From a bacterium (lineage in GTDB: Bacteria > SAR324 > XYD2-FULL-50-16 > G965216635): 64,000 nt of DNA. The number at the start of each line of letters is the position of its first letter. Position 1 is the first letter of the stretch. Below the pieces are notes generated by a model. That model ran no database searches, was not told the DNA's origin, and saw only the letters and a list, made by a program, of their open reading frames with translations. Positions 1-57,167 of this stretch are shown here, piece after piece. The DNA lies in the NCBI GenBank assembly GCA_965216635.1, contig OZ244188.1, positions 219,205-283,204 on the forward strand, read 5' to 3'. Both the position numbers and the translations under genes were made by a program.

Positions 1-1357
1 AAACAGATCCCGCCCTTATTCTACGAGCGAGTTTGTGGGCTTTGCTTAAATTTTCAGTCCATAAAGAAGCAACCAATCCGTAGGTGCTGTCGTTGGCTTT
101 TTGGATAGCTTCGTCATCGGTCTTGAAAGTATCAACGACAACTACGGGTCCAAAAATTTCTTCTCGCACAATGCACGCGTCTTTTTTAGGTGCTTCAAAA
201 ATGGTAGGTTCTATAAAACAATTCACTCCTCCTATTTCTAGTCTGTTTCCTCCATAAACAAGGGTGGCTTCTGTTTTTCCTTTTTCAATATAGCCCATCA
301 CCTTGTCAGCGTGGGATTGCTCTACCATAGCTCCCAATTCGTTTTCTGGATCTAGCGGGTTGCCTACTTTGATTTTCTTTGTTTTTTCTATGATTTTTTT
401 CATCAACTCTTCTTTAAGGCTTTCGTGTATCAAAAGACGGGTATTTGCAGAACACATTTCTCCTTGATTAAAAGTAAAACCTTCTACAGATTTTTCTGCT
501 ATTTTATCTAAATCTTTGGCGTCTTCTAAAACTATGTTGGGAGATTTACCTCCAGCCTCTACCCAAATTCTTTTCATATTGGAACGAGCCGAGTATTCCA
601 AAAATAACTTGCCAATTTCAGTGGAACCAGTAAAAGCGACACAATCTATATCGGAATGTATACCGATAGCCTTGCCAGCGGTTTCTCCAAAGCCTGTTAC
701 TACATTAAAAACGCCATCTGGAATTCCAGCCTCCAAGGCTAATTCTGCTAATTTTAAGGCAGACGAGGGAGATTGTTCGGCTGGTTTTAAAATAAAAGAA
801 TTTCCAGAAATTAAAGCAGGTGCAGTTTTCCACATAGCCATATCCAAGGGAAAATTCCACGGCACTACAGCTCCGATAACTCCCATAGGCTCGCGGGTAA
901 TTGTAGCAAAAGCATCCTTTCTGACAGGAGCTATTTCGTCGTAAATTTTATCTATACTCTCAGCATACCATCTTAAAACACCGCAGGCTGCTGGAACATC
1001 GCTTACATAAGCCATTTGTACAGATTTTCCCATATCTAAACTTTCTAACAAAGCAAAGGTTTCGCTATTTCGCTCTATTAAGTCCACCAATTTAAGCAAA
1101 ATTTTTTTCTTCTCACTAGGATTCGTTTCGCTCCAAACTCCTTTGTTAAAAGATTGTCTTGCGGCTTGGACGGCTTTTTCTACATCTTCTTTATCGCAGG
1201 CAGCTACTTGGGCTAAAACTTCTCCGGTAGCAGGGTTTATGTTTTCAAAAGTTTTTCCGCTTACGGCAGAAACAAATTCTCCATCAATAAAAGCAAGATT
1301 GGGAAATTTTATTTTTTCAGCTTCTGTTTTCCAAAATTCATAAGTTTTTTCTTTCAT
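1..1357 (-). CDS. NAD(P)-dependent aldehyde dehydrogenase (C-terminus runs off window start)
   Basis: Absent from ORF track because cut by window edge. Reverse-strand translation from ATG at 1357 reads MKEKTYEFWKTEAEKIKF... and contains the ALDH catalytic Cys motif FNQGEMCSANTRL and the Glu motif VEAGGKSP. Track ORFs 516..944(+) and 1143..1343(+) are antisense shadows of this gene. Confidence 0.85.
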   Translation of the reverse strand, partial: MKEKTYEFWKTEAEKIKFPNLAFIDGEFVSAVSGKTFENINPATGEVLAQVAACDKEDVEKAVQAARQSFNKGVWSETNPSEKKKILLKLVDLIERNSETFALLESLDMGKSVQMAYVSDVPAACGVLRWYAESIDKIYDEIAPVRKDAFATITREPMGVIGAVVPWNFPLDMAMWKTAPALISGNSFILKPAEQSPSSALKLAELALEAGIPDGVFNVVTGFGETAGKAIGIHSDIDCVAFTGSTEIGKLFLEYSARSNMKRIWVEAGGKSPNIVLEDAKDLDKIAEKSVEGFTFNQGEMCSANTRLLIHESLKEELMKKIIEKTKKIKVGNPLDPENELGAMVEQSHADKVMGYIEKGKTEATLVYGGNRLEIGGVNCFIEPTIFEAPKKDACIVREEIFGPVVVVDTFKTDDEAIQKANDSTYGLVASLWTENLSKAHKLARRIRAGSV

Positions 1358-1405
1358 TTTTTATTTAGGTGATAATTTGATTAAAAATACACGCTCTACA
1401 CAATT

Positions 1406-1534
1406 AGATAGACCTTTGAATTTGCCAAATAGAACAAAACTAGCTGCGACGGCTAGCCAAATGGTTAGAACAGGAGCGAAAAAAACTTTCGCTCCTGGTC
1501 TAGCTTTCCTATAATGCTAAAGTTCAAAGGTCTC
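1406..1534. mobile_element. MITE-like intergenic repeat (family tagacctttgaatt / ggctagccaaatggttagaacagg modules)
   Basis: Shares the gacctttgaatttgccaaatagaacaaaactagctg...ggctagccaaatggttagaacagg module with 10990-11060 and 56861-56940; ends in ttcaaaggtct. Confidence 0.6.
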
Positions 1535-1713
1535 AACAGTATTGTCAAAAATACGCGCAGCTACAAAGTTATTCAGATTCTATCTCTAATTAAAATTGCA
1601 ACTGCACCTTGCCTCACACTTATCCTGGAATTTCCTTTCTTGTGTTTGAAATTTTATCAAATTATCTCAAAACCGCTAGAAAGCTAATTCAACAAATTGT
1701 AGGATAGTTACTA

Positions 1714-2766
1714 TCAATTATATCTATAGGGTCTTCCCGCTTTTTGCATATCAGAGTTATATTTTTTGAAGATATTAACGACCTTAGCCTTCGTTTTTGA
1801 CTCTGCTGCTATTTTGTCCCAAAACTTAACAGCTGCCTTTTCCACTCTAGCCCATTCGCTATCAGATATAGTTGTTAGTTTGAGTTTTTTACCATAAACT
1901 CTGAGAGAAGCTTCGCCTCCCCAATACCACCATTGCCTATAATAGTGTGAACTATCCATAGTAAGCTGCAGAAGCTCTTTCAAGTGAGCAGGTAATTTGT
2001 TATACTGCTTCATATTCGCAAAAAACGAACCCGCCCAAGCACCAGAAATATTGTTGGTGAGAAAATATTTCGTAACATCTGCCCAACCTACAGTATAGTC
2101 TTCTGTTATCCCAGACCACGCAATACCATCTAGTTCTCCAGTTTGAACAGCAACCTCAATATCTTCCCAAGGCAATGTAACAGGCACTACTCCAAACTGT
2201 TTAAGAAACCTTCCCGCTGTTGGAAATGTAAAGACTCTTAATCCTTTTAAATCAGACAGTTTACGGATAGGTTTCTTAGTTGCAAAATGACAAGGGTCCC
2301 AAGCACCTGCTGACAAATGTTTTACTCCGAGTTTTGAATATTCTGCATCCCAAATCTTATTCAATCCATATTGATTAAATAATACAGGAACATCCAGAGA
2401 GTACCTACTAGCAAAAGGGAAATAGCCTCCAAAAACAGTAACCTCAGTGGGAGAAGCCATAGAATCATCATCCGATTGCACTGCGTCTATTGTGCCTTTT
2501 TGCATTGCTCTGAAAAGCTCACTTGTAGGAACTAATTGATCAGAAAAATACAATTCTATTTTCATTTCACCCTTTGCAACTTTATTAAAACTATCAATTG
2601 CCGGTTTGATTACATGTTTTGCTAAGGCTGGTCCTGCATAGGTCTGCATTCTCCAGCGAATCTCCTTTTTAGCGTGAACTACAGGGGCTTTTGTTATCAA
2701 AGCAGCAGCCCCTACACCAGCTATTCCAGCTCCTTTGATGAATTTACGTCTAGTTGTTGTATTCAT
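1714..2766 (-). CDS. dctP: TRAP transporter periplasmic solute-binding protein (DctP family)
   Basis: 364-aa track ORF (1714..2808) with overall DctP-like pattern. N-terminus has a twin-arginine motif TRRKFIKGAGIAGVGAAA, so the true start is probably MNTTT at 2766. Lies downstream of the dctQM pair on the same strand. Confidence 0.75.
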   Translation of the reverse strand: MNTTTRRKFIKGAGIAGVGAAALITKAPVVHAKKEIRWRMQTYAGPALAKHVIKPAIDSFNKVAKGEMKIELYFSDQLVPTSELFRAMQKGTIDAVQSDDDSMASPTEVTVFGGYFPFASRYSLDVPVLFNQYGLNKIWDAEYSKLGVKHLSAGAWDPCHFATKKPIRKLSDLKGLRVFTFPTAGRFLKQFGVVPVTLPWEDIEVAVQTGELDGIAWSGITEDYTVGWADVTKYFLTNNISGAWAGSFFANMKQYNKLPAHLKELLQLTMDSSHYYRQWWYWGGEASLRVYGKKLKLTTISDSEWARVEKAAVKFWDKIAAESKTKAKVVNIFKKYNSDMQKAGRPYRYN

Positions 2767-2775
2767 AATTAATCT

Positions 2776-3172
2776 TGAGACCTTTGAATTAGCGTTCTGT
2801 TTAGCCAAAACAAGCTTATTGCTTCCAACCTATACGGGCTTTAGCAAAAGAGCCACTGGTATGACCATTTGGCTCTTTTGCAGTCTATATTGTGTTAGCT
2901 TTAAGTTTTGTGGTGTTTTTTGCTACGCCGTTAAAAAAAAAATTTAACTCTTGAAATATCGTAGTGCCACAATAATGGCACCAGGTACACTACAAAACTT
3001 GCGTTATGTGCTCTAAATAAGGCAAAAAAGAATGTAAAAGAGCCAGTGGATCTTCTACTGCAACCCTTATTTTGTGTTAAGAAATAAGAGAGTATTCCTG
3101 CAAGCTAAATTTTTTTTTTGCACTTTTCTAACCATTTGGCTAGCCGTCACATAACACTAATTCAAAGCTCTC
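2776..3172. mobile_element. Composite MITE-like repeat (about 400 bp) between dctP and dctM
   Basis: Begins tgagacctttgaattagcgttctgtttagcc and ends ggctagccgtcacataacactaattcaaagctctc, an inverted-end structure. Internal modules (gcaaaagagccactgg, ttaactcttgaaata, attcctgcaagctaaa) recur at 11100-11250, 14780-14860, 28960-29030 and 57040-57110. Confidence 0.7.
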
Positions 3173-3295
3173 GCCTTTAGTTAAGTTTAAAATTAAGCAA
3201 ACAATTATTAATTATTCGCTGTACTATAAAAACATAATCTGTTACCCTTAAAGATCTCTTTTTTTTTAAAAAATATTTTAACAGCTAACTAACTT

Positions 3296-4618
3296 TTATT
3301 TTCCATAGATATAATTTGGAAACCATAAACTAATATTAGGAAATAGCATAATTAGCAGCAATGCAAATATCATAATGAGAATAAAGGGCCAAATAGAGCT
3401 ATAAATATCTTTTATTGTAATTTCAGGAGGAGCCATAGCCCGCATTAGAAAAAGATTGTATCCAAATGGAGGAGTAATATAGGCAATTTGAGATGTAATA
3501 GTGTATAAGACACCATACCAAATAAGATTAAAGCCCAAATGATCTACAAGTGGAACATAGAGAGGAGCAACTATTACAAGCATTGCAGTATCATCAAGGA
3601 ATGTACCCATAACAAGAAAGGATATTTGCATTAAAATTAACACGGTCCAAGGGCTAAATCCGAGTTGATCTGTAAATAGATTTTCTATCACCTTAACTGC
3701 TCCCAGTCCGTCAAATACTGCCCCGAATCCCAACGCAGCAAGAATAATCCACATGAACATACAAGATATGGCTAGAGTTTGTTTGACTGATACTTCCAGA
3801 ACATGTTTATTCATCCTACCTTTGAGCACAGATGCCAACAATGCAGCCATAGCTCCGATTGCCGAACTTTCCACAAGACTTGTCCACCCTTTGACAAATG
3901 GAATCATCATTGCAGCAAAAATAAATAAAGGAAGCAAACCTGATCTTAGAAGAGCTAATTTTTCGCGAAGTGAAACTTTCCTATCATCTGATTTTAATGC
4001 AGGACCGAGTTCAGGTTGAAATTTACAGCGGACAATAATGTATATAATAAAGAGGGTCGCCATCAGCAATCCTGGAATAATTCCTGCTAGCCAAAGTCTT
4101 CCTACCGGTTGCCTTGCTATCAAGGCATATAGGACTAAGACTACAGAAGGTGGGATCAAAATTCCCAATGATGAACCAGCTTGAATTACCCCTGTAACCA
4201 TTTTTTTGTCATAATTTCGTTTTAAGAGTTCGGGTAGAGCAATTGTTGCCCCAATAGCCATACCTGCTACTGAAAGTCCATTCATAGCAGAAATAAGAAC
4301 CATTAAAATAATAGTGCCAATAGCCAAACCACCTCTAATTGGCCCCATCCATACATGGAACATACGGTATAAATCATCAGCCAGTTTTGATTCTGATAAA
4401 ATATATCCCATAAAAATAAACATAGGTAGAGTTAGTAAAGGATACCATTTCATCAATTTCATAGCAGCACCAAAAGGAATAGCCGAACCTCCAGTTCCCC
4501 ATAATGAAAGAGCAGCAATAGATGCAACAGCCCCGATAGCTCCAAAAACCCGTTGTCCTGTCAACAGCATTAGCATCATTGACGAGAACATAAAAACGGC
4601 AATAAATTCGTATGGCAT
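3296..4618 (-). CDS. dctM: TRAP transporter large permease (DctM family)
   Basis: 440-aa polytopic membrane protein with the DctM-type sequence pattern. Start overlaps the stop of the upstream dctQ-like gene (4618). Confidence 0.8.
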   Translation of the reverse strand: MPYEFIAVFMFSSMMLMLLTGQRVFGAIGAVASIAALSLWGTGGSAIPFGAAMKLMKWYPLLTLPMFIFMGYILSESKLADDLYRMFHVWMGPIRGGLAIGTIILMVLISAMNGLSVAGMAIGATIALPELLKRNYDKKMVTGVIQAGSSLGILIPPSVVLVLYALIARQPVGRLWLAGIIPGLLMATLFIIYIIVRCKFQPELGPALKSDDRKVSLREKLALLRSGLLPLFIFAAMMIPFVKGWTSLVESSAIGAMAALLASVLKGRMNKHVLEVSVKQTLAISCMFMWIILAALGFGAVFDGLGAVKVIENLFTDQLGFSPWTVLILMQISFLVMGTFLDDTAMLVIVAPLYVPLVDHLGFNLIWYGVLYTITSQIAYITPPFGYNLFLMRAMAPPEITIKDIYSSIWPFILIMIFALLLIMLFPNISLWFPNYIYGK

Positions 4619-5124
4619 TAGATTTTTTCTCCTTTAATACGTAATATATCCTTCAAAAATTCAGAAAAAATTTGTAACAACATCAGTACAAACCCCAAGC
4701 TTGTAATAAATTTTATTGGCCATAGGTAAGGTCTCCAAGCCGTTGGACTTCTTTCGCTGTATTGTAGAGAATAAGCGAGGCTTTCTATAGATCCATAAAA
4801 AAGAACTCCTAGATAAAATACGAGTAGTAATGAAGTGAAAATATCAAATTTTGCTTTTCGCCTTACACTCCAATTCCCATAAAACAAATCCATACGGACA
4901 TTAGAGCCGAGTTGAATAGAATAAGGTCCTCCTAAAATATAATACGCGACCAGTGCAAACTGTGCCATTTCTAGTGTCCAAAGAGATGGAACTAGAAAAG
5001 TTTTTGAGATAGACGACCACGCAAGTATTACTACTAGCAAGAAAATCCCATACATAACTACTCGTCCGATGCGATAATTGACGATGTCTATCAGATAAAT
5101 AATTTTGTTTAATATTTTCATCAT
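4618..5124 (-). CDS. dctQ: TRAP transporter small permease (DctQ family)
   Basis: 168 aa with 4 predicted TM helices, immediately upstream of and overlapping dctM. Confidence 0.7.
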   Translation of the reverse strand: MMKILNKIIYLIDIVNYRIGRVVMYGIFLLVVILAWSSISKTFLVPSLWTLEMAQFALVAYYILGGPYSIQLGSNVRMDLFYGNWSVRRKAKFDIFTSLLLVFYLGVLFYGSIESLAYSLQYSERSPTAWRPYLWPIKFITSLGFVLMLLQIFSEFLKDILRIKGEKI

Positions 5125-5163
5125 AAATTCAAATATAAGTTCACAAGCTAAATATAAAAAAAA

Positions 5164-5937
5164 TTATTCTGGAGTTACATACGCCGAAGTAATCCCTCCA
5201 TCCACTATAAACTCTGTTCCTGTAGTATAAGAAGATTCATCAGAGGCTAAGAATAAAGCTGATTTTGCCATTTCTTTTGCTTCTCCAAAACGTCCCATCG
5301 GAATATGAACCAGTCGCCTCTGTTTTTTAGCATCTGTATCCAAGAACTTCATTAATAATTCAGTCTGTAAGGGACCTGGACAAAGAGCATTAATACGAAT
5401 GTTTTCTCTAGCGTGTAGCACTGCCAGTTCACGAGTTAAAGCAATCACCCCGCCCTTGCTAGCAGTGTAGGCAACCTGTGGGGTTGCAGCTCCCATGAGA
5501 CCAACGAAAGATGCGGTATTAATAATAGAGCCCCCTCCAGCACGTCGCATAGCACTAATTCCATATTTGCAACCAAGAAAAACTCCTTTTAAATTAATTG
5601 CCATTGTTAAATCCCAAACTTCTTCCTCCGTTACTTGAGCGTTGTCGTCTCTACTATCCATAATCCCTGCATTATTAAACATTACATTAAGTTTTCCGAA
5701 TTGGGTTTCGGCAGTTTTTACCATATTTTCACAGTTTGTAGCTTTAGAAATATCAGCGTGAACATAAATAGCATCTCCTCCAGCAGATTGAATTTTAGCA
5801 ATCGTTTTTTCACCTTCTGCGTCATTCACATCTACAGCTACAATTTTTGCTCCCTCTTGTGCAAACAAAAGCGCAGCTTCTCTACCAATTCCACTAGATG
5901 CGCCCGTAATAAGAGCAACTTTATTTTGTAATCTCAT
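5164..5937 (-). CDS. SDR-family oxidoreductase
   Basis: TGASSGIG Rossmann motif at the N-terminus, NNAG, and a YTASKGGV catalytic Tyr/Lys motif; 257 aa. Confidence 0.85.
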   Translation of the reverse strand: MRLQNKVALITGASSGIGREAALLFAQEGAKIVAVDVNDAEGEKTIAKIQSAGGDAIYVHADISKATNCENMVKTAETQFGKLNVMFNNAGIMDSRDDNAQVTEEEVWDLTMAINLKGVFLGCKYGISAMRRAGGGSIINTASFVGLMGAATPQVAYTASKGGVIALTRELAVLHARENIRINALCPGPLQTELLMKFLDTDAKKQRRLVHIPMGRFGEAKEMAKSALFLASDESSYTTGTEFIVDGGITSAYVTPE

Positions 5938-6042
5938 AAGTTTTATTTTTGTTATTGATTAAATTTTTTTAAGTCTATTATTTAGATAGTCCCATTATTT
6001 TAGAACTGTAAATTTTATGGATTTTTTTAAGGTTAGAGAATT

Positions 6043-7422
6043 TCATAATTGGTTTTCTGTTTTCAAATCATCCTGAACTTTTACAATACTATCCCTAAGT
6101 GTAGCAATTAAAAAATCAGCTTCTTCTTTGCTTAAACAAAGAGGAGGAGACATTACATTTTTATCTCCAATCGGGCGAATAATGAGTCCAGCGTTTTGGG
6201 CGTATTTAGAGACTCTTTCCCCTACCTTCAAATTCGCATCAAAAGAAGTTTTGCTGCTTTTGTCTTTTACAAATTCTACACACATCATAAAATGGCTACC
6301 TCTAACATCCCCCACTATTTCTAAGTCGTCAAGTTCTCCGAGTTTTTTTTCAAAATAACCTCCTACTTTTTGCACATGCCCACAAAAATCCTCGTTTTCT
6401 AAAATCTCAATATTTTTCAAACCCACAGCACAGCTTACAGGATGTCCCGAATAGGTGAAGCCGTGTGCAAATTCTTTGCCTCCTCTAGGTTGGCTGATAG
6501 TATCAAAAATTTCATCCGAAATCAGAGTTGCTCCCAAAGGAATATAACCAGAAGTTAAACCTTTAGCACAGGTTATTATATCAGGTTGAATATCAAACAT
6601 TTTCTCTGAAGAAAAAAAATGCCCTAGCCTACCGAAAGCGGTGACTACTTCATCAGAAATATAGAAACAATCGTGTTTTTTACAAATTTCCAAAGCTCGT
6701 TTGTGATAACCTTTAGGCGCCATTAAAACCCCACCTGCTCCCATAATAGGTTCAGCTATAAAGGCGGCTACTTTGTCTGCTCCTATGCTTAAAATTTTGG
6801 CTTCCAATTCTTGCATTAGCTGGTCACAAAAATCGTTATCGGAAAGGCTACTTGGTTTTCTATAAAGATTCGGGCTAGAAATATGATGAATCCATTCTTT
6901 TTCTACGGTAAAATCTATATGGTCGTAATTTAGTCCTGTCAAAGACATCGCAAGATAGGTACTGCCGTGATAAGCACCCTCTCTCGCAATAATATGCTTT
7001 TTTTGGGGTTGTTTTTTTAGATGAAAATAATGGTGAATAGTGCGCACAGCAGTATCGTTCGCCCCCGAACCGCTTAAAGAATAAAAAACACGGTTTAAAT
7101 TTTGTGGAGCTAGTTCTGCTAATTTGGCTGCTAAAAATGCTGCTGGTTCTGTGGTATGAGCTCCAAAGGTAGAAAAATAAGCCATTTTGTCCATTTGTTT
7201 AGCGGCTACTTCCCCTAATTCTTTTCTGCCGTAGCCGATATTGATACACCACAAACCACCTATACCGTCCAAATATTTTTTACCATCAGAGTCAAAAACA
7301 AAAGAGCCTTTGGCTTCTTTAATTATGATAGAGCCTTCCTTCTTAAAAGATTCAAATTCAGTCCAAGGATGAATAAAATGATCTTTATCCGCTTGCCAAA
7401 TTTTTTGATTGTTTGTTTGCAT
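6043..7422 (-). CDS. Class III (omega) aminotransferase, PLP-dependent, amine:pyruvate type
   Basis: 459 aa; GIGGLWCINIGYGRKEL, AREGAYHGST, and DEVVTAFGRLG with the PLP lysine region CAKGLTSGYIPLG, typical of omega-amino-acid/putrescine/taurine-pyruvate aminotransferases. Confidence 0.8.
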   Translation of the reverse strand: MQTNNQKIWQADKDHFIHPWTEFESFKKEGSIIIKEAKGSFVFDSDGKKYLDGIGGLWCINIGYGRKELGEVAAKQMDKMAYFSTFGAHTTEPAAFLAAKLAELAPQNLNRVFYSLSGSGANDTAVRTIHHYFHLKKQPQKKHIIAREGAYHGSTYLAMSLTGLNYDHIDFTVEKEWIHHISSPNLYRKPSSLSDNDFCDQLMQELEAKILSIGADKVAAFIAEPIMGAGGVLMAPKGYHKRALEICKKHDCFYISDEVVTAFGRLGHFFSSEKMFDIQPDIITCAKGLTSGYIPLGATLISDEIFDTISQPRGGKEFAHGFTYSGHPVSCAVGLKNIEILENEDFCGHVQKVGGYFEKKLGELDDLEIVGDVRGSHFMMCVEFVKDKSSKTSFDANLKVGERVSKYAQNAGLIIRPIGDKNVMSPPLCLSKEEADFLIATLRDSIVKVQDDLKTENQL

Positions 7423-7444
7423 TTTAGTTTTTTGATAAAAATAA

Positions 7445-7560
7445 GAATGAACTTTCTATTTTGTAAGATAAGAAAAATAAACTAGAAAAAGCAAATTCTT
7501 TCTTTTAGACTAGAAAAATAAACTAGAAAAAGCAAATTCTTTCTTTTAGACTAGTAAAGC
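7445..7560. promoter_or_regulatory. 45-bp direct repeat x2 in divergent promoter region between aminotransferase and hdc
   Basis: aaataaactagaaaaagcaaattctttcttttagactag occurs twice in tandem (7468-7506 and 7514-7552). Confidence 0.4.
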
Positions 7561-7571
7561 TACAATAAAAC

Positions 7572-8672
7572 ATGATCACAAAACCCCCACTACTAAAATT
7601 CTTAAAAGAAATACAACACCATTTAGGCAATATGTTCGGTTATCCTGCCGCTCAAGATTTTAACTACGAAGAATTGCTTCCGTTTTTTCGCCACCCAATC
7701 AATAACATTGGTGATCCTTTTATTAAAGGCACCGCCAAAGATAATTGTCACCATTTAGAAAGAGAGGTATTAGGATTTTGGGCAAAATTGCTAAGAGCCC
7801 CCAAAAATAATTGGTGGGGTTACGTGACTAATGGAGGAACTGAAGGCAATCTGTATGGTCTTTGGTTGGCGAGAGAATGCTATCCTAAGGGAATTGTTTA
7901 TTACTCCGAAGATACGCACTATAGCATTGATAAAAATTTGCATTTTTTGAAGATGCAGCAGTGCCGCATTCCTTCCCAAAAAAATGGAGAGATAGACTAT
8001 AAAAAATTGCAAAAAACTTTAGCTAAAAATAGAAAAAAGCCCGCAATTATTTTTGCAAACATTGGAACTACAATGACAGAAGCAAAAGATGATATAGGAA
8101 AAATTCAGGAGATACTAAAAGATTTGATTATTTCTGATTACTATATTCACTGTGATTCAGCAATGAGCGGAGCCATTTCCCCTTTTTTAAAACCCAAACC
8201 GAATTTTGATTTTGCAGACGGGGCAGATAGTATTGTAATTAGCGGACACAAATTTATTGGCTCGCCTATCCCCTGTGGAATAGCCATAGTTCTCAAAAAA
8301 CATAAAAATCGCATCGCAGAATCCATTCCTTATATTGGCACAGTAGATACTACCATCAGCGGTTCTCGTAGCGGGCTAACTTCTCTTATTCTTTGGTATG
8401 CAATGAAGACACAATCCAAAAAAGGAATGGCTGCAAGAGTGCAGAAATCTTTGGATTTAGCGGGTTATGCAAAAACAAAATTAGTAGAAATGGGAGTGCA
8501 AGCGTGGAGAAATGAAAATGCTATCACTGTGGTATTTCCTGCAGCCAAAAAAGAGCTAAAAGAAAAATGGCAACTCGCCACAGCCAATAAAATCTCACAT
8601 ATTATCGTTATGCCTCACCTCACGAAAAAAGATATAGACAATTTTCTCGCAGATTATAAAAAAATTTTTTAG
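7572..8672 (+). CDS. hdc: Pyridoxal-dependent histidine decarboxylase (group II decarboxylase, Gram-negative Hdc type)
   Basis: WGYVTNGGTEGN, YYSEDTHYS, NGEIDY, IIFANIGTT, SGHKFIGSPIPCGIAIV (PLP Lys), SGSRSG and AWRNENAITVVFP track the Morganella/Klebsiella Hdc family essentially block by block; 366 aa. Confidence 0.8.
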   Translation: MITKPPLLKFLKEIQHHLGNMFGYPAAQDFNYEELLPFFRHPINNIGDPFIKGTAKDNCHHLEREVLGFWAKLLRAPKNNWWGYVTNGGTEGNLYGLWLARECYPKGIVYYSEDTHYSIDKNLHFLKMQQCRIPSQKNGEIDYKKLQKTLAKNRKKPAIIFANIGTTMTEAKDDIGKIQEILKDLIISDYYIHCDSAMSGAISPFLKPKPNFDFADGADSIVISGHKFIGSPIPCGIAIVLKKHKNRIAESIPYIGTVDTTISGSRSGLTSLILWYAMKTQSKKGMAARVQKSLDLAGYAKTKLVEMGVQAWRNENAITVVFPAAKKELKEKWQLATANKISHIIVMPHLTKKDIDNFLADYKKIF

Positions 8673-8768
8673 CTCGTAGGAATACTGAAGAGCATTTCTT
8701 CACAAATGGCAAGAGACAAATTTTTTTTGCCTTGCCTAGCCGTCACATAACGCAAATTCAAAGGTCTA
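8670..8768. mobile_element. Partial MITE-like repeat overlapping the hdc stop
   Basis: ttttttagctcgtaggaatactgaag ... ttgccttgcctagccgtcacataacgcaaattcaaaggtcta. Confidence 0.6.
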
Positions 8769-9424
8769 ATTTACTATGAAATGGAAAAAGAAGAGAAAAA
8801 GAAACAAATTAAAGCCAAAAATAAGCATAAATCAGTTATAAATTTAGTAAATTATTGAAAAATTTCTGTGATTTTTGGAAAAAATTTTAAAAAATAGAAT
8901 TTTTAATAATAAACTTTTTTTAAGAGACTAATTCAACAGTTTCTTTAAGAATTGAAAAAAATAAAATGACATTAATCTCCTTATTTTAATAAGCCTAAGA
9001 TACCTATCTTGTTAAAACAGTCAGAAAATGGTTGACAAGAGATTATTTTACTATTAAACTCAACATTATTTTTAGTGATTTAAAACAAAATATTTAAAGC
9101 TGACCTGAAACCGAGTGTTTTTCAATTATGAGAGCACTGATTTTTTATCAAGCAATATAGTGCCTGTTCTAGTTGATGATAGATTTGATTCCACATCAAG
9201 TTCGTTTAGACATCAGGTCGTTTAAGCATTAGGGACAACTTACTGCAGAAAATATCGACATAGTTATGAATATAATCACTAATAAGTTTTATAATGATAA
9301 TGTTTTATTGTGGTCACAGTTTTTGATAGTTTTATGCAAAACACTGAGACCTTATTTTTTAACCAGTTACCTGTTTTGATAAGGATATACCTTATTATCT
9401 AGGCTACTATTTTATGGATATATT

Positions 9425-10873
9425 ATGAAAAAAATTGTATCGTTTCTAACCCTTATTTTAGGGATTTTTCTTTTTGCATCGTCTAATCTTTTAGCTCAAG
9501 GTAGCGATGAAGATTTTGAATATTGTTTTGTATTTGAACGACTCAAAGCAAAAAATGAAGGCGCTAATACTATAGAATCTATAAATCAAGCGAAAGAAGT
9601 TTGTAATTTAAAACTTGGTAATAGTCAAGGAGATAATAACGCTACTGGAAGTTCTACAGAAGAGAATTTAGAAAATTCAGGTTCTAGGAAAGCTCCAATT
9701 TTTACTATAGATATTTTTACTGGTAAAAAAAAAGTAAAAGGAGAGAAGTCCGAAAAACTTGTCACAACTGGGGTTTTATTGAATTATTATATTACACCTA
9801 AATTTAGTTTGGCCGCAGGCTATCTATTGTCTAAAGGGGATGTAAATGGAACTGTTGTGGATTATGAAACTGAGAGCTATACGGACTATTCTGACTATTC
9901 TTATGTAGATGAAACTTACGACGCAACAGTAGCTCGCTATACAGATGAAACCCGTGATATACGAATAAAACAATATAAAGATGAAACCCGTGATATACAA
10001 GTAAAACAATATAAAGATGAAACCTATGATGATCGAATAGCCCGATATACAATCACAACCTCTGGTAATGAACTTAGACCAAATGAACTAACAAAACCCG
10101 GTGATAAATATTTCTGTTCTTTTGGTGATTTTTCTGGATCTCCCGATATTTGTTATGCTTGGAATTATGCTAGAAGGGTCTATGGAACTTTTTTCTGTGG
10201 TAGTTCGTTTGCTGACAGACTTGCTTCCAATTACTATCAGTGTATAAAAATAGTTCGTAAACCTGATGTTTTTAAGTCTTCTTGTAAAATACATGGAGGT
10301 AATGGGTGTATTCAGTGGCAATATCAAACTACTTATGGAGTATTCTCTTACTATGAAACAAAGACTCTCACTGAGCGAGTATTCTCTCACTTTGAAACAA
10401 AGACTTTCACTGAGCGAGTATTCTCTCACTATGAAACGGAAACTCTCATTAGCCAAGTCTTCTCTCACTATGAAACAGAGACTCTCACTCGCCAAGTAGC
10501 TAGTTATGTCACAAAGACACGCCAAGTACCTCGTCGTAGTCGCACAGAAAATCTATCCATTAAAAATATTGAGTCTTCTTTGGGGGCGAAATGGCATTTA
10601 TTGGGTAATGGTTTGGTGGATTTTTTTCTAGGAGCTGGTATAGTCAATATTTCGCATAGTAGAGAATATCTAAATACTGTAGAAAGCGGAAGTGGTTCTG
10701 GTACTTATTTTGAAACTGGTATAAAGTATATTTTTAATTCTGGTTTTAATATAGGCTACTATTGGCGAAGATCTTCGGCTACTTTTGAATTAACTAATAA
10801 TGCAAATCAGCAAACTACAGAAACAGATGGAGGAGGAATTACAAGCGGGTTGACATTTGGGTTTGCCTTTTAG
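9425..10873 (+). CDS. Secreted/outer-membrane repeat protein (signal peptide, Cys-containing N-domain, two tandem-repeat blocks, C-terminal beta-barrel-like segment ending in F)
   Basis: Signal peptide MKKIVSFLTLILGIFLFASSNLLAQ. 36-bp (12-aa DETRDIRIKQYK) repeats x3 at about 9937-10045 and 42-bp (14-aa FSHYETKTLTERV) repeats x4 at about 10325-10500. C-terminal ...GLTFGFAF. Confidence 0.6.
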   Translation: MKKIVSFLTLILGIFLFASSNLLAQGSDEDFEYCFVFERLKAKNEGANTIESINQAKEVCNLKLGNSQGDNNATGSSTEENLENSGSRKAPIFTIDIFTGKKKVKGEKSEKLVTTGVLLNYYITPKFSLAAGYLLSKGDVNGTVVDYETESYTDYSDYSYVDETYDATVARYTDETRDIRIKQYKDETRDIQVKQYKDETYDDRIARYTITTSGNELRPNELTKPGDKYFCSFGDFSGSPDICYAWNYARRVYGTFFCGSSFADRLASNYYQCIKIVRKPDVFKSSCKIHGGNGCIQWQYQTTYGVFSYYETKTLTERVFSHFETKTFTERVFSHYETETLISQVFSHYETETLTRQVASYVTKTRQVPRRSRTENLSIKNIESSLGAKWHLLGNGLVDFFLGAGIVNISHSREYLNTVESGSGSGTYFETGIKYIFNSGFNIGYYWRRSSATFELTNNANQQTTETDGGGITSGLTFGFAF

Positions 10874-10981: not shown

Positions 10982-11256
10982 CTAATTCAAAAGTCTTAAA
11001 TAGACCTTTGAATTTCGCTGATGTGACGGCTAGCCAAATGGTTAGAACAGGTGCGAAAAATTTTTTTAGCTCGTAGGAATACTGAAGTATTTCAAGAGTT
11101 AAAAAAATTTTTCAATGGCGTAGTAAAAAACACTACGAACCTTAAAGCTAACACAATATAGACTGCAAAAGAGCCACTGGCTCTTTTGCTAAAGCCCGTA
11201 TAGAGTGAAAGCAACAAGCTTGTTTTGGCTAAACAGAATGCAAATTCAAAAGTCTA
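10982..11256. mobile_element. Composite MITE-like repeat (about 275 bp)
   Basis: Starts aattcaaaagtcttaaatagacctttgaatttcgctg...ggctagccaaatggttagaacaggtgcg and ends gcaacaagcttgttttggctaaacagaatgcaaattcaaaagtctat. Confidence 0.7.
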
Positions 11257-11268
11257 TTAAAATTATTT

Positions 11269-12063
11269 ATGAAAAAAACAATAATACTTCTTTTTGTTGG
11301 TTGTCTTTTGAGTTTGACTGATCTTTTGGCACAGGAGAATTTTGAAAATTGTTTTGCTCTAAAAAGGATAAGAGCTAAAGCTGGCGGAGCTAGCGCTTAT
11401 GAAGCTGTAGAAATTGCAGAAACAATTTGTTATAGAAAATTCTACCCTGATAAAAAAAGAATGGTTGCTAGTAAAAAACATGCTTTAAAAGAAAATTCTG
11501 ATAAGGATACAATTCAAGAAACAAGCAAAAAAGAAAACAATAATAACTGGGTGGTTGCTACTCAACTCAGAGTCCATTGGGAACTGCAAGATGTTAAAAC
11601 TCTAGTTTCTGATACTCGCTCAGCAAAAAAAATAATCACAAATGAAGAAACACCTATAGCTAAAATAACAGGCAACAGTGATAATCTAAATCTTAGATTT
11701 GCTGGAAAAAATAGCGACCTTATTCTCAACTACTCCAAAGATGGCAAACAGAAAATCATCACTTCTACTTCTCGTGAAATAGGAAAATGGAGTTTAGGAG
11801 GCTCTCTAACAATAGATAAAGATTCTGCAAACTCAAACGCTAATATTAGTGATTTTGGAAAAATTCATCTAAAACACCGCAGCGGACTTCGTTTGAATTT
11901 TAATAGAACCAATGTTTTGAAAGATGTTAATGGTAGTAGTTCTGTAAATAGTGGTGAAATCGGCTTTACCACTAAAAATAAAAAATACAACAGCACTTTA
12001 GACGGAAGCCTTTTATTTAACGATGGATTCTCAACTAGAATTCAAATGTACCAAAGTTTTTAA
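11269..12063 (+). CDS. Secreted hypothetical protein, paralog of the N-terminal domain of 9425..10873
   Basis: Signal peptide ...LLAQ, then a conserved CF..R.KA....A.E......C pattern shared with the 482-aa protein. Confidence 0.5.
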   Translation: MKKTIILLFVGCLLSLTDLLAQENFENCFALKRIRAKAGGASAYEAVEIAETICYRKFYPDKKRMVASKKHALKENSDKDTIQETSKKENNNNWVVATQLRVHWELQDVKTLVSDTRSAKKIITNEETPIAKITGNSDNLNLRFAGKNSDLILNYSKDGKQKIITSTSREIGKWSLGGSLTIDKDSANSNANISDFGKIHLKHRSGLRLNFNRTNVLKDVNGSSSVNSGEIGFTTKNKKYNSTLDGSLLFNDGFSTRIQMYQSF

Positions 12064-14762: not shown

Positions 14763-14968
14763 ACTTTTGCATTTGCATTCTGTTTAGCCTATGCAGCGTT
14801 GAAAATTTTTTTTAACTCTTGAAATACTTCAGTATTCCAGCGAGCTAAAAAAAATTTTCGCACCTGTTCTAACCATTTGGCTAGCCGTCACATAACGCAA
14901 ATTCAAAGGTCTATAATAGACTGTCGTATTTGCATTCTGTTTAGCCAATGCAGTGTTAAAAAAAATTT
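14761..14968. mobile_element. Composite MITE-like repeat between mtaB-like gene and hemH
   Basis: agacttttgcatttgcattctgtttagcctatgcagcgttgaaaa...accatttggctagccgtcacataacgcaaattcaaaggtctat, plus a second half-copy. Its read-through translation (SRHITQIQRS) produced the artificial N-terminal extension of track ORF 14877. Confidence 0.7.
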
Positions 14969-14969
14969 A

Positions 14970-16067
14970 ATGTCCGTAAAATACAGTTCCCAAAAAAATT
15001 TCAATCATTTAGAGCTACAAAAAATAGGGATTTTACTGGTTAATTTAGGCACTCCTGATGCACCAACAACAAAATCTCTTAAGAAATACTTAAAGCAATT
15101 TTTGAGCGATCCGAGGGTGATAGAGCTACCTAAATACATTTGGTTTTTTATTTTAAATTTTATTGTTTTGCCTTTTCGTGCTCCAAAATCATCCAAAAAA
15201 TACCGTACTATTTGGGGGAAAAAAGGCTCTCCGCTATTAGTTCAATCTCAAAACCTTACTTTCAAACTACAAAAAAAACTTCCTTCTTCTATGATTTGTG
15301 CGTTGGCGATGAGTTACGGCAAACCATCTATCTGCGATGCCCTAGAAAATTTGAGAGAGCAAAATTGTAAAAAATTGCTTGTTTTACCTATGTATCCGCA
15401 ATATTCTGCAACGACTGTAGCTTCTGTTTTTGACGAAGTTTGCACACAACTGAAAAAATGGCGATGGATTCCAGAATTAAGATTTGTCAATCAGTACCAC
15501 GACGAAGAAGCCTATATTAGGGCACTTGCTGCAAGTCTTCTTCCCTTTAAAAAAATAGCAAAAAACCAAAAAATTGTTTTTTCTTATCACGGAACGCCTT
15601 TACAATCATTATTAGATGGCGATCCCTACCACTGTCAATGCCATAAAACTTCTCGTTTAATAGCGGAAAAATTAAAACTAAAAAAAGAAAATTATCTAAC
15701 CTGTTTTCAATCTAGGTTTGGCTCAAGTGCTTGGTTGCAACCCTATACCGACGAAACCTTGAAAAGCCTACCTCAAAAAAAAATCAACGAAGTTTTTATA
15801 ATATGCCCCGGTTTTTCCATAGATTGTTTGGAGACTTTGGAGGAAATCAATTCAGAAAATAGAGAAATATTCTTAAAAAATGGCGGGAAAAAATTCACTT
15901 ATATTTCTTGTTTGAACGATTCAAAACACCAGCTAAAACTTTTTCAAACTTTAGTAGACATACATACTCAAAACTGGGCGAAACAAGAGAAAAAAACAAG
16001 AGAAAAACAAAACCATCTTTATCAACAATTATTTGAAAAACACAGCTTTTTCTCCACAAACCGATAG
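14970..16067 (+). CDS. hemH: Ferrochelatase
   Basis: GILLVNLGTPDAPT N-terminal ferrochelatase signature. Start moved from track 14877 to ATG 14970 (MSVKYS...) because the upstream extension is MITE sequence. Confidence 0.8.
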   Translation: MSVKYSSQKNFNHLELQKIGILLVNLGTPDAPTTKSLKKYLKQFLSDPRVIELPKYIWFFILNFIVLPFRAPKSSKKYRTIWGKKGSPLLVQSQNLTFKLQKKLPSSMICALAMSYGKPSICDALENLREQNCKKLLVLPMYPQYSATTVASVFDEVCTQLKKWRWIPELRFVNQYHDEEAYIRALAASLLPFKKIAKNQKIVFSYHGTPLQSLLDGDPYHCQCHKTSRLIAEKLKLKKENYLTCFQSRFGSSAWLQPYTDETLKSLPQKKINEVFIICPGFSIDCLETLEEINSENREIFLKNGGKKFTYISCLNDSKHQLKLFQTLVDIHTQNWAKQEKKTREKQNHLYQQLFEKHSFFSTNR

Positions 16068-16080
16068 CCCAACTGGATAA

Positions 16081-16118
16081 TGAGACCTTTGAATTAGAAT
16101 GCTAATTCAAAAGTCTAT
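16081..16118. mobile_element. Minimal 38-bp MITE hairpin (both inverted ends only)
   Basis: tgagacctttgaatt-agaatgct-aattcaaaagtctat. Confidence 0.6.
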
Positions 16119-16231
16119 ATAAAAAAGGAGCAGAAAAAATAAAAAAAACTGCCAATAGCCACTAAGTACTATTGACAAGAAGGTGTTTTTCTGTAATTAT
16201 TCTTTATAAAGGATAAGCAGAAAAAATAAAA

Positions 16232-16371
16232 AACTTTTGAATTAGCGTTCTGTTTAGCCTATGCAGCGTTAAAAAAAAATTTTAACTCTTGAAATATTAC
16301 ATATATTCCTGCGAGCTAAAATTTTTTTTTGCCTTGCCTAGCCGTCACATAACGCAAATTCAAAGGTCTAT
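16232..16371. mobile_element. MITE-like repeat (about 140 bp)
   Basis: aacttttgaattagcgttctgtttagcctatgcagcgtt...ttgccttgcctagccgtcacataacgcaaattcaaaggtctat; nearly identical to 28938-29080. Confidence 0.75.
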
Positions 16372-28937: not shown

Positions 28938-29080
28938 TAGAGACCTTTGAATTAGCGTTCTGTTTAGCCTATGCGTCGTTGAAAAAAATTTTTAACTCTT
29001 GAAATACTTGAGTATTCCTGCGAGCTAAATTTTTTTTTTGCCTTGCCTAGCCGTCACATAACGCAAATTCAAAGGTCTAT
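28938..29080. mobile_element. MITE-like repeat (about 143 bp) between actC and actD
   Basis: tagagacctttgaattagcgttctgtttagcctatgcgtcgttgaaaaa...ttgccttgcctagccgtcacataacgcaaattcaaaggtctat; clear inverted termini. Confidence 0.8.
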
Positions 29081-42601: not shown

Positions 42602-42664
42602 TAGACCTTTGAATTTGCGTTATGTTTAGCCTTGCCGTCGCATCAGCGAAATTCAAAGGTCTAT
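42602..42664. mobile_element. Short MITE (63 bp)
   Basis: tagacctttgaatttgcgttatgtttagccttgccgtcgcatcagcgaaattcaaaggtctat. Confidence 0.8.
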
Positions 42665-42779
42665 AATAAAAAAAAGTAAGTTTGTATAGTTTAGCAAAAA
42701 AAACTTCTTTGTCAAGTATAAAATATAATTTTTAGCAAAAAAACTTCTTTGTCAAGTATAAAATAGACTTTTGATTTTA

Positions 42780-49710: not shown

Positions 49711-49721
49711 CCAGTTATTTT

Positions 49722-49800
49722 TTGCCATTGATTTTTTGCCAATTATTTTTTACCAATTATTTTTTACCAGTTATTTTTTGCCAGTATTTTTTTTATGGGT
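49722..49800. repeat. 15-bp tandem repeat array (5-6 units) upstream of pcm
   Basis: ttattttttgccat tgattttttgccaa ttattttttaccaa ttattttttaccag ttattttttgccag; unit related to the folC internal repeat. Confidence 0.8.
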
Positions 49801-52801: not shown

Positions 52802-53129
52802 TACCCTAATACCTGATACCCGAAACTATGAAATTAAGATATTTTTTTGAGTAAGTTAGGGGTTGATAATATTTCAATAAAGTATTAAAAATAAAAGAAA
52901 TACAGACCTAGAAGAAAAGAGACCTATTTTTGACTATTTAAAATTGAACACAGAAACAATAGAAAAATATTTAAAAAAAGAAAAAAACAACATTACTAAC
53001 ACTAAGGTCAAAAATTTTAGTCAAAAATTCTTATCAGGGATAAAAGATGCTAAAAATATGGTGACTGTGTTTGAATTTTTTAAAGATTTGTTTTAAAGAA
53101 AAATAAAAAAGTTATGTTTTTTTATTTTT

Positions 53130-53275
53130 GTGTTATTATTCTTTGTAAAGTTTTATAAAAATAAAACTGAATAACCTAAATTAACTAAAAAAAAGATTGA
53201 CTATTTTTATTTTTTTAGTTACTCTTTGTAAAGTTTTATAAAAATAAAACTGAATAACCTAAATTAACTATAAAA
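53130..53275. repeat. About 60-bp direct repeat x2 upstream of OMP gene 53281
   Basis: ctttgtaaagttttataaaaataaaactgaataacctaaattaacta at about 53141-53200 and 53222-53275. Confidence 0.7.
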
Positions 53276-53280
53276 AGACT

Positions 53281-56427: not shown

Positions 56428-56650
56428 CTTTTACTGTTTTTTTCTTAAAATAAATTGAGACACTTATACAAGTGTTTTGGCTAAACAAGCTAAGCTAATC
56501 TATTTAAGTTTTTTTTGCAAAGCCATCAAAAAAGTCACAATTTGAGAATTTTTACAGCGGCAGTTTTTTTTTATTAGTATTGTTTGACGAAAGGTTTTAT
56601 TTTTAGTATTCTTTAAAGAAATTTTAAGAAACTAATCAGATAAAAATACT

Positions 56651-56860: not shown

Positions 56861-57167
56861 TAGACCTTTGAATTTGCCAAATAGAACAAAACTAGCTGTG
56901 ATGGCTAGCCAAATGGTTATAACAGGTGCGAAAATTTACAAAAAAGCGGAGCATACACGGTAGTATGTGAGTGTTTTTTGTAAATTTTTAATGGCGTAGT
57001 GCCACAATATAACGGGATCAGGGCACTACAAAACTTAAAGCTAGCACAATATAGACTGCAAAAGAGCCACTAACAAAAGAGCCAGTGGCTCTTTTGCTAA
57101 AGCCTGTATTGGCGTAAAAGCAATAAGCTTGTTTTGGCTAAACTAGACAAGCAAATTCAAAAGTCTA
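56861..57167. mobile_element. Composite MITE-like repeat (about 300 bp) between rpmF and plsX
   Basis: tagacctttgaatttgccaaatagaacaaaactagctgtgatggctagccaaatggtt...gcaataagcttgttttggctaaactagacaagcaaattcaaaagtcta. Confidence 0.75.

Follow-up and report, generated by a model that had tools for sequence, protein, structure and literature searches.

A histidine decarboxylase-family gene beside a Hin-like aminotransferase and aldehyde dehydrogenase pair that carries an inserted ethanolamine-type TRAP cassette

The locus described here lies at the start of a 64-kb stretch of DNA (the window) from the 2.39-Mb genome of a SAR324 bacterium (contig OZ244188.1, positions 219,205 to 283,204), and statements below about what is absent from the window cover these 64 kb. 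It comprises a histidine decarboxylase-family gene (hdc) and, divergent from it, genes for a class III aminotransferase (AT), a short-chain dehydrogenase/reductase (SDR), a transporter of the tripartite ATP-independent periplasmic (TRAP) type and an aldehyde dehydrogenase (ALDH). The favoured explanation, to which we would give about an even chance, is that this is a module leading from histidine through histamine to imidazole-acetate, and that it acquired an ethanolamine uptake cassette. Read as a mosaic on a histamine module, the locus combines known parts in a new way and does not amount to a new kind of system. The core idea of the original prediction for this DNA, a decarboxylase standing beside a histamine-type pair of enzymes that takes an amine to the aldehyde and then to the acid, holds up.

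All seven genes of that prediction were recovered in the order, on the strands and in the positions it gave. The plus strand carries hdc (7572-8672), which belongs to the group II decarboxylases dependent on pyridoxal 5'-phosphate (PLP). The minus strand carries, in the direction of reading, the AT gene (6043-7422), the SDR gene (5164-5937; PF13561/PF00106), dctQ/EtoV for the small TRAP permease (4618-5124; PF04290), dctM/EtoW for the large permease (3296-4618; PF06808), dctP for the solute-binding protein (1714-2808, likely 1714-2766) and the ALDH gene (1-1351), which is cut by the window start, leaving the N-terminal 450 amino acids with about 45 C-terminal residues missing. The likely true start of dctP is the ATG at 2766, and the resulting N-terminus, MNTTTRRKF, is a twin-arginine translocation (Tat) signal.

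The AT scored 678 bits against the NCBIfam model NF005447 (PRK07036; cut-off 618 bits) and 526 bits against the SpuC-type model NF005682. Its best solved relatives were amine/polyamine:pyruvate transaminases; beta-alanine:pyruvate enzymes scored far lower, and a GabT- or beta-alanine-type identity was ruled out by the scores against solved relatives. The orthologous group captured by NF005447 is tight, with 58-65% identity and about 170 invariant columns. For the ALDH, the best NCBIfam match was PuuC, at 537 bits and under the equivalog cut-off of that model, and the best solved relatives (5iuu, 6b4r, which is KauB, and 7jso; 486-490 bits) were aryl- and amino-aldehyde dehydrogenases.

Genomic context gave a more specific indication. 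The Hin pathway of histamine degradation, described from Pseudomonas putida U and Pseudomonas aeruginosa, employs the aminotransferase HinC, the ALDH HinD, the FAD monooxygenase HinF, the enamine deaminase HinL, the amidases HinH and HinG (the latter EC 3.5.1.8) and the LysR regulator HinK, with an operon order of hinFLHG (PMC8231116, PMC6467879). Beyond the closest relatives, orthologues of the window AT were examined in four lineages (L083/L084; L085; L166-L169; and L170, Marinomonas posidonica), and NF005447 was also the best match for the orthologues found in these Hin-like clusters. There the AT and an ALDH were accompanied by a monooxygenase resembling flavin-containing monooxygenases, RidA, DUF1028, an M20 amidase and LysR, usually together with an amine-type ATP-binding cassette (ABC) transporter, the transporters as a whole being varied (PotD-type ABC, TauA-type ABC, and amino acid-polyamine-organocation (APC) permeases). 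The order monooxygenase-RidA-DUF1028-M20 in L166 equals that of hinFLHG, and in M. posidonica the first three genes follow this order, with the M20 gene upstream of that for the AT. The LysR protein of M. posidonica scored 212 bits to PDB entries 6m5f/3fzv, the next LysR reaching 80 bits; these entries we take to be HinK (PA0218) of P. aeruginosa.

The window ALDH was 88.5% identical to the ALDH encoded directly after the AT in the closely related contig L082, where the AT itself is 86% identical to that of the window, and 47-51% identical to the AT-adjacent ALDHs of two of the Hin-like clusters (L083 and L085). The pairing of the two genes recurs in all of these settings: they are coupled through an ATGA overlap in L082 and are adjacent or next but one in L083, L085, L166 and L170. 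Because their orthologues sit in Hin-like clusters, the window AT and ALDH are read as HinC/HinD-type enzymes, a reading that draws on the genomic context of those orthologues. Together with membership of NF005447, this context supports the earlier proposal that the pair carries out the first two steps of histamine catabolism.

One of the Hin-like clusters also carries a decarboxylase gene of its own. On a 2.97-Mb contig (L085), four genes from the AT, lies a homologue of pyruvoyl-type histidine decarboxylases (15276-16265, minus strand), which retains the TS|SF (Ser-Ser) cleavage site and scored 116 bits to 1hq6 and 190 bits, below the cut-off, on TIGR00541. Its fold is unrelated to that of the window hdc product. 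The position of this gene suggests, from sequence, a catabolic route in which histidine is degraded by way of histamine, and the occurrence of two unrelated decarboxylases, PLP-dependent in the window and pyruvoyl-type in L085, beside the same catabolic genes is hard to explain by chance.

Compared with the Hin pathway of the two pseudomonads, the window shares an operon pair of class III AT and ALDH genes with a transporter gene between them, as in hinDAC, and in other genomes its AT orthologues are accompanied by the complete hinFLHG-type complement along with a gene for a HinK-like LysR. It differs in being without hinFLHG and hinK, in having an ethanolamine-type TRAP transporter instead of an APC permease, in the presence of an SDR, and in the attached hdc, through which the substrate could be made in the cell and not only imported. 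With the polyamine:pyruvate route (SpuC and a KauB/PuuC-type ALDH), it has in common both enzyme families, the amine-to-aldehyde-to-acid logic and the best solved relatives; however, the window AT scored higher on NF005447 than on NF005682, and neither a polyamine transporter nor gamma-glutamyl enzymes are encoded nearby.

The AT and ALDH genes of the window are separated by a 4.67-kb segment (1367-6033) consisting of SDR-dctQ-dctM-dctP and their spacers. When the window was compared by blastn with the contigs of its closest relatives, L082, which carries AT-ALDH, and the sister contig L179, homology was limited to 1-1366, 6034-7455 and 7587-8663. Because it skips exactly the intervening segment, 1367-6033 was inserted between the AT and ALDH genes, and the SDR and TRAP genes do not belong to the ancestral pair. 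In L082 the junction is empty and the AT stop overlaps the ALDH start (ATGA), which is a signature of translational coupling and marks AT-ALDH as the ancestral pair. In L179 the same junction holds a gene for an 865-residue type IIG restriction-modification protein. Both inserts are bordered by an imperfect repeat, 10-12 nt long, of the AT gene's 3' end (the junctions lie at 5589-5614 in L082, at 8650-8710 and 11355-11380 in L179, and at 1352-1366 and 6034-6043 in the window). The GC content at third codon positions (GC3) of the inserted genes was 0.25-0.30, equal to that of host genes (0.27-0.32), and a recent transfer of the cassette from high-GC Proteobacteria was rejected on this ground. 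Since the insert keeps the orientation of the operon and its GC3 matches the host, the arrangement has been kept for some time.

The solute-binding protein of the inserted transporter was close to Csal_0678 of Chromohalobacter salexigens (PDB 4uab/4xf5; E = 7e-172, 75% identity), all other TRAP binding proteins giving E = 1e-13 or worse, and it falls within the group delimited by E below 1e-60 to Csal_0678 / MED193_10041 (PMC10132767). Csal_0678 binds ethanolamine and is without the usual carboxylate-binding arginine (PMC4646407, PMC5812351), and its Phaeobacter orthologue EtoX has a Kd of 7.9 uM for ethanolamine; transporters of this type have been reported, with high expression, for about 5-10% of marine bacteria (PMC10132767). 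Scanning a single genome for each species yielded about 600 EtoX loci, of which the best 80 (L002-L081) were kept for comparison. Relative to these best 80 of about 600, identity was 77-87% for DctP, 74-82% for DctM and 45-74% for DctQ. DctP retained 222 of the 229 family columns conserved at 95% or more, and its 75% identity to the crystal protein falls within the family range of 75-85%; the seven deviating columns had changed mostly to Lys or Leu, including two changes of Glu to Lys. The window transporter is thus assigned, from its sequence, to the ethanolamine type, EtoVWX/Csal_0678, and not to generic carriers of dicarboxylates or of some unknown amine.

The genes around EtoVWX in the window are unusual for such a transporter. 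Among the best 80 of about 600 EtoX loci, about half had the canonical set of neighbours, namely RpiR, an FGase-like amidohydrolase, a glutamine synthetase (GS)-like gamma-glutamylase, an ALDH and an iron-containing alcohol dehydrogenase (Fe-ADH); each gene family occurred in 34-40 loci, with 41-50 raw tblastn matches. No GS-like, Fe-ADH, FGase or RpiR homologue was found in the window. Conversely, a window-type AT or hdc homologue occurred in none of those 80 best loci, and the window ALDH was only 30-36% identical to the ALDHs found there. With the EtoVWX and gamma-glutamylation systems of C. salexigens, Agrobacterium and Phaeobacter MED193, the window therefore shares the Q-M-P gene order, the Tat signal and substantial identity (75-87% for the binding protein, 45-82% for the permeases), but its transporter is partnered by a transaminase, a PuuC/KauB-like ALDH and an SDR, with the canonical partners absent. 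The remaining EtoVWX loci among the best 80 of about 600 stood alone or beside other genes, such as open reading frames (ORFs) in Parvibaculaceae that by eye resemble acyl-CoA dehydrogenase and flavin monooxygenase. The fate of imported ethanolamine may differ among lineages.

The SDR reached no NCBIfam equivalog cut-off, and its best solved relative, 4wec, is an uncharacterised SDR. Across many and very dissimilar marine lineages, the family shows 78-88% identity. It was considered as the canonical gamma-glutamyl-ethanolamide dehydrogenase and rejected, since the canonical enzyme is an Fe-ADH. In the window it may reduce the aldehyde intermediate or oxidise an amino alcohol. In another lineage (L175-L178, 7543-9774), an SDR 82% identical to that of the window is encoded directly after a glutamine-synthetase-like gene, which hints that it acts on gamma-glutamylated amines there; in a further lineage its neighbours were unrelated.

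The hdc product scored 469.3 bits on the histidine decarboxylase equivalog NF002748, well above the cut-off of 305 bits, and was 46% identical (312 bits) to the Photobacterium enzyme 7erv. In an alignment with 7erv and 11 members of its clade, the catalytic residues were invariant, namely K227, the PLP lysine in SGHK; H116, the histidine that stacks on PLP; D195, the aspartate facing the pyridine nitrogen; and Y254, the tyrosine of the mobile loop. Fold, family model and catalytic residues are thus shared with the PLP-dependent histidine decarboxylases of Photobacterium, Morganella and related enteric bacteria. Unlike these, the window protein belongs to a separate environmental clade, whose members are 52-65% identical to it, and at the pocket residue of the YPX motif it has Ala (A/S/V in the clade) where the crystallised 7erv has Glu and plant serine decarboxylase has Tyr. 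Enteric hdc genes usually neighbour a histidine/histamine antiporter gene and a hisS-type gene, and neither adjoins hdc in the window.

The environmental clade was sampled at 80 metagenomic loci (L086-L165), at least 3 kb of upstream sequence being available in 41 and at least 3 kb on both sides in 28. Judging from the sequences, an ACT-domain-like protein of about 130 residues is encoded downstream of hdc in 30 of these loci, a divergent Lrp/AsnC-like regulator upstream in 19 and a small membrane protein in 15; the usual ACT-domain-like gene and Lrp/AsnC regulator were not found at the window locus. The physiological role of this clade appears to be unstudied. A 5.6-kb contig (L001) carries two hdc copies, at 2148-3236 (plus strand) and 4549-5625 (minus strand), whose products both show about 88% identity to that of the window gene and which lie inverted around an EamA-type transporter gene, an arrangement that represents either a true inverted duplication or an assembly artefact.

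Under the favoured explanation, the hdc product would convert histidine to histamine, the HinC-type AT would transfer its amino group to pyruvate, giving imidazole-4-acetaldehyde and alanine, and the HinD-type ALDH would oxidise the aldehyde to imidazole-4-acetate. In net terms, the module would probably harvest amino nitrogen in the form of alanine, and also yield NADH, from histamine derived from histidine. The AT and ALDH genes were translationally coupled in the ancestor, and a 4.7-kb cassette of SDR and EtoVWX then came to lie precisely at their junction, facing the same way. In its present form the operon would thus link uptake of ethanolamine or small amino alcohols with a broad pair of amine-to-aldehyde-to-acid enzymes: the TRAP transporter would bring in ethanolamine, which the AT and ALDH may also convert, first to glycolaldehyde and from there to glycolate. 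The sequences themselves show to which families the proteins belong, that the cassette was inserted, that the pair was coupled ancestrally and that the orthologues have Hin-type surroundings; which substrates the enzymes use, the cooperation of hdc with the AT operon and any flux from the TRAP transporter to the AT are what we infer from this.

Several observations weigh against this explanation. The closest relatives (85-89% identity) carry hdc and AT-ALDH on separate contigs with other neighbours: their hdc genes (about 88% identical) lie among genes for defence and other functions, without an AT gene in the vicinity, and their AT-ALDH loci are without hdc. Homologues of AT, ALDH and hinFLHG were absent from all 80 metagenomic hdc loci, 41 of which include at least 3 kb of upstream sequence. 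The hdc-AT adjacency is not conserved and is specific to the window genome. Homologues of hinFLHG and HinK were found neither in the window nor on the relatives' contigs. The hdc product scored 286 bits to plant serine decarboxylase, nearly equal to the 312 bits for the bacterial histidine decarboxylase, and given the Ala at the YPX pocket position, the predicted histidine specificity is uncertain. No class III aminotransferase lay near EtoX in the best 80 of about 600 reference loci, and the AT/ALDH junction is a hot spot for insertion in this lineage, at which a restriction-modification gene has also landed, so that the TRAP cassette may be unrelated cargo.

These points bear most directly on the possibility that the locus is a coincidental mosaic, a rearrangement-prone stretch in which hdc, AT-ALDH and SDR-TRAP are independent and their adjacency is without functional meaning. 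Histamine would then be made by hdc for export or pH control, AT-ALDH would serve general amine catabolism, and the transporter would supply ethanolamine to enzymes encoded elsewhere. The neighbours of hdc and AT in the relatives differ as such a history would predict (IS1595, HicAB, methylases, MmeI-type restriction-modification, SMODS and ORF6N), and the restriction-modification gene at the L179 junction, the repeats resembling miniature inverted-repeat transposable elements (MITEs) across the locus, an intergenic region not shared with the relatives and the lack of a regulator gene at the locus all fit the same picture. This is a possibility of some weight, though we consider it doubtful: an hdc-family gene beside HinC/HinD-type genes is unlikely by chance (by our own rough estimate, about 2 in about 2,200 genes would be the expectation for such a gene adjoining one given locus), in L085 a decarboxylase that is not homologous stands in the same pairing, and the inserted genes keep the operon orientation and match host genes in GC3. 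That the whole locus serves histamine instead, the EtoX-like protein having shifted to bind histamine in the role of HinA so that import and synthesis feed the same two enzymes, would accord with the layout of hinD-hinA-hinC in P. aeruginosa, where the histamine transporter gene hinA lies between hinD and hinC (PMC8231116), with the varied transporters of other Hin-like clusters and with the deviation of DctP at seven highly conserved columns. It is nevertheless unlikely, as DctP is as close to the ethanolamine-bound crystal protein as its family generally is and keeps 222 of 229 conserved columns, the seven changes, mostly to Lys or Leu, are of the kind expected from AT-rich drift, and histamine has far more bulk than either ethanolamine or 2-aminopropanol.

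The converse, that the whole locus is devoted to ethanolamine, would have a serine decarboxylase make ethanolamine and the TRAP transporter import it, with the AT yielding glycolaldehyde, the ALDH glycolate, and the SDR ethylene glycol or a means of handling aminopropanols. The ethanolamine type of the transporter and the proximity in score of plant serine decarboxylases to bacterial histidine decarboxylase speak for it, and an engineered route from serine reportedly combines a decarboxylase, a deaminating enzyme and a reductase. However, the hdc product passes the histidine decarboxylase equivalog by a wide margin, its specificity residue is Ala, and in plant enzymes, where this YPX pocket residue sets serine versus alanine specificity, a Tyr-to-Ala mutant lost serine decarboxylase activity (PMC11407765); moreover, the AT and ALDH orthologues sit in Hin-type and not ethanolamine-type clusters, and simultaneous synthesis and degradation of ethanolamine would be without obvious benefit. 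We judge this explanation to be distinctly improbable. Very improbable indeed is a role for histamine as a building block of a siderophore or other secondary metabolite, an alternative already raised in the original prediction. It has precedent in hdc genes that supply histamine for anguibactin, acinetobactin and pseudomonine, but no ORF of a size typical of non-ribosomal peptide or polyketide synthases occurs in the 64 kb, where the largest (1044 residues) encodes an alternative-complex-III-type subunit, and no siderophore-like family was recognised among the recurrent neighbours at the 80 hdc loci, of which two sequences were read, one ACT-domain-like and one Lrp/AsnC-like, and most remain unannotated.

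A more novel reading, which we put forward tentatively and consider rather doubtful as a whole, links two claims: that ethanolamine imported by EtoVWX is deaminated by the window AT, an omega-transaminase, and the product oxidised by the ALDH, and that hdc together with Hin enzymes constitutes a decarboxylation-first catabolism of histidine, assembled independently with a PLP-type decarboxylase in the window and a pyruvoyl-type decarboxylase in L085. The first part, if true, would be a third bacterial route for ethanolamine, requiring neither B12 (as in Eut) nor ATP-dependent gamma-glutamylation. EtoX-type transporters have so far been tied to that single catabolic pathway, which about half of the best 80 of about 600 loci carry; because the window couples such a transporter to a transaminase/ALDH pair, etoX abundance may not report one fate of ethanolamine. 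The two unrelated histidine decarboxylase folds beside Hin-type genes suggest that some bacteria degrade histidine through histamine, which bears on the sources and sinks of histamine in marine and food settings. The locus also illustrates clearly the remodelling of an operon through an insertion where two genes were translationally coupled.

The 149-bp divergent intergenic region between AT and hdc (7423-7571) contains the direct repeat that had been proposed as a dedicated regulator site. The repeat is real, although its unit measures 41 bp where 45 bp had been given. It is a tandem duplication (7473-7554; 2.1 copies at 97% by TRF) made up of exact copies at 7473-7513 and 7514-7554; a degenerate partial copy precedes it, and 17 bp separate its end from the hdc ATG. 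The window has no other occurrence of it (0 chance matches expected), and the relatives do not share it, their homology breaking off at 7455 and starting again at 7587. Neither the 41-bp unit nor the whole intergenic region formed a stable fold (z = +0.5 to +1.7), and Rfam gave no match in 1-9500 at E up to 0.1, the only matches in the whole window being two tRNAs. Sites resembling sigma-70 promoters were fewer than in shuffled sequences (19 versus 29.6), and terminator-like sites were at chance level. Tandem duplications are present in at least four other intergenic regions of the window, at 42690-42772, 49711-49792, 53119-53276 and 56566-56621, with units of 14-83 nt in about 2-6 copies. Because such duplications are common in the AT-rich intergenic DNA of the window, the repeat is not by itself a sign of an operator, and with no fold and no counterpart in relatives, the proposed regulator site finds no support. 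Recent slippage in AT-rich DNA is the simpler reading.

A second class of repeat is spread throughout the window. It is a MITE-like family, also reminiscent of repetitive extragenic palindromic (REP) elements, with terminal inverted repeats TAGACCTTTGAATT and an inner module GACGGCTAGCCAAATGGTTAGAACAG, full copies measuring 60-140 nt. Against an expectation of 0.28, the 64 kb contain the core motif 22 times, and every occurrence is intergenic. Two members lie within the inserted segment: an element with the same terminal inverted repeats in the dctP-ALDH spacer (1410-1533), and a composite repeat (2778-3171) that takes up the dctM-dctP spacer, which is unusually long. The two arms of a 49-nt inverted repeat (1445-1493 / 3103-3151) lie on either side of dctP, where these members occupy the long spacers; the inverted repeat was considered as a cassette-specific feature and rejected, since it belongs to the window-wide family. 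Further copies include those at 8710-8768, 10984-11041, 14873-14912, 16083-16116, 28941-29078, 42603-42662 and 56862-56916.

Downstream of hdc, two plus-strand genes (9425-10873 and 11269-12063) encode secreted proteins whose signal peptides are Bacteroidota-like and end in LLAQ. The product of the first contains units of the YKDETRD- and FSHYETETL-types, encoded by internal tandem repeats of 36-39 nt, and has a C-terminus weakly resembling an outer-membrane protein beta-barrel.

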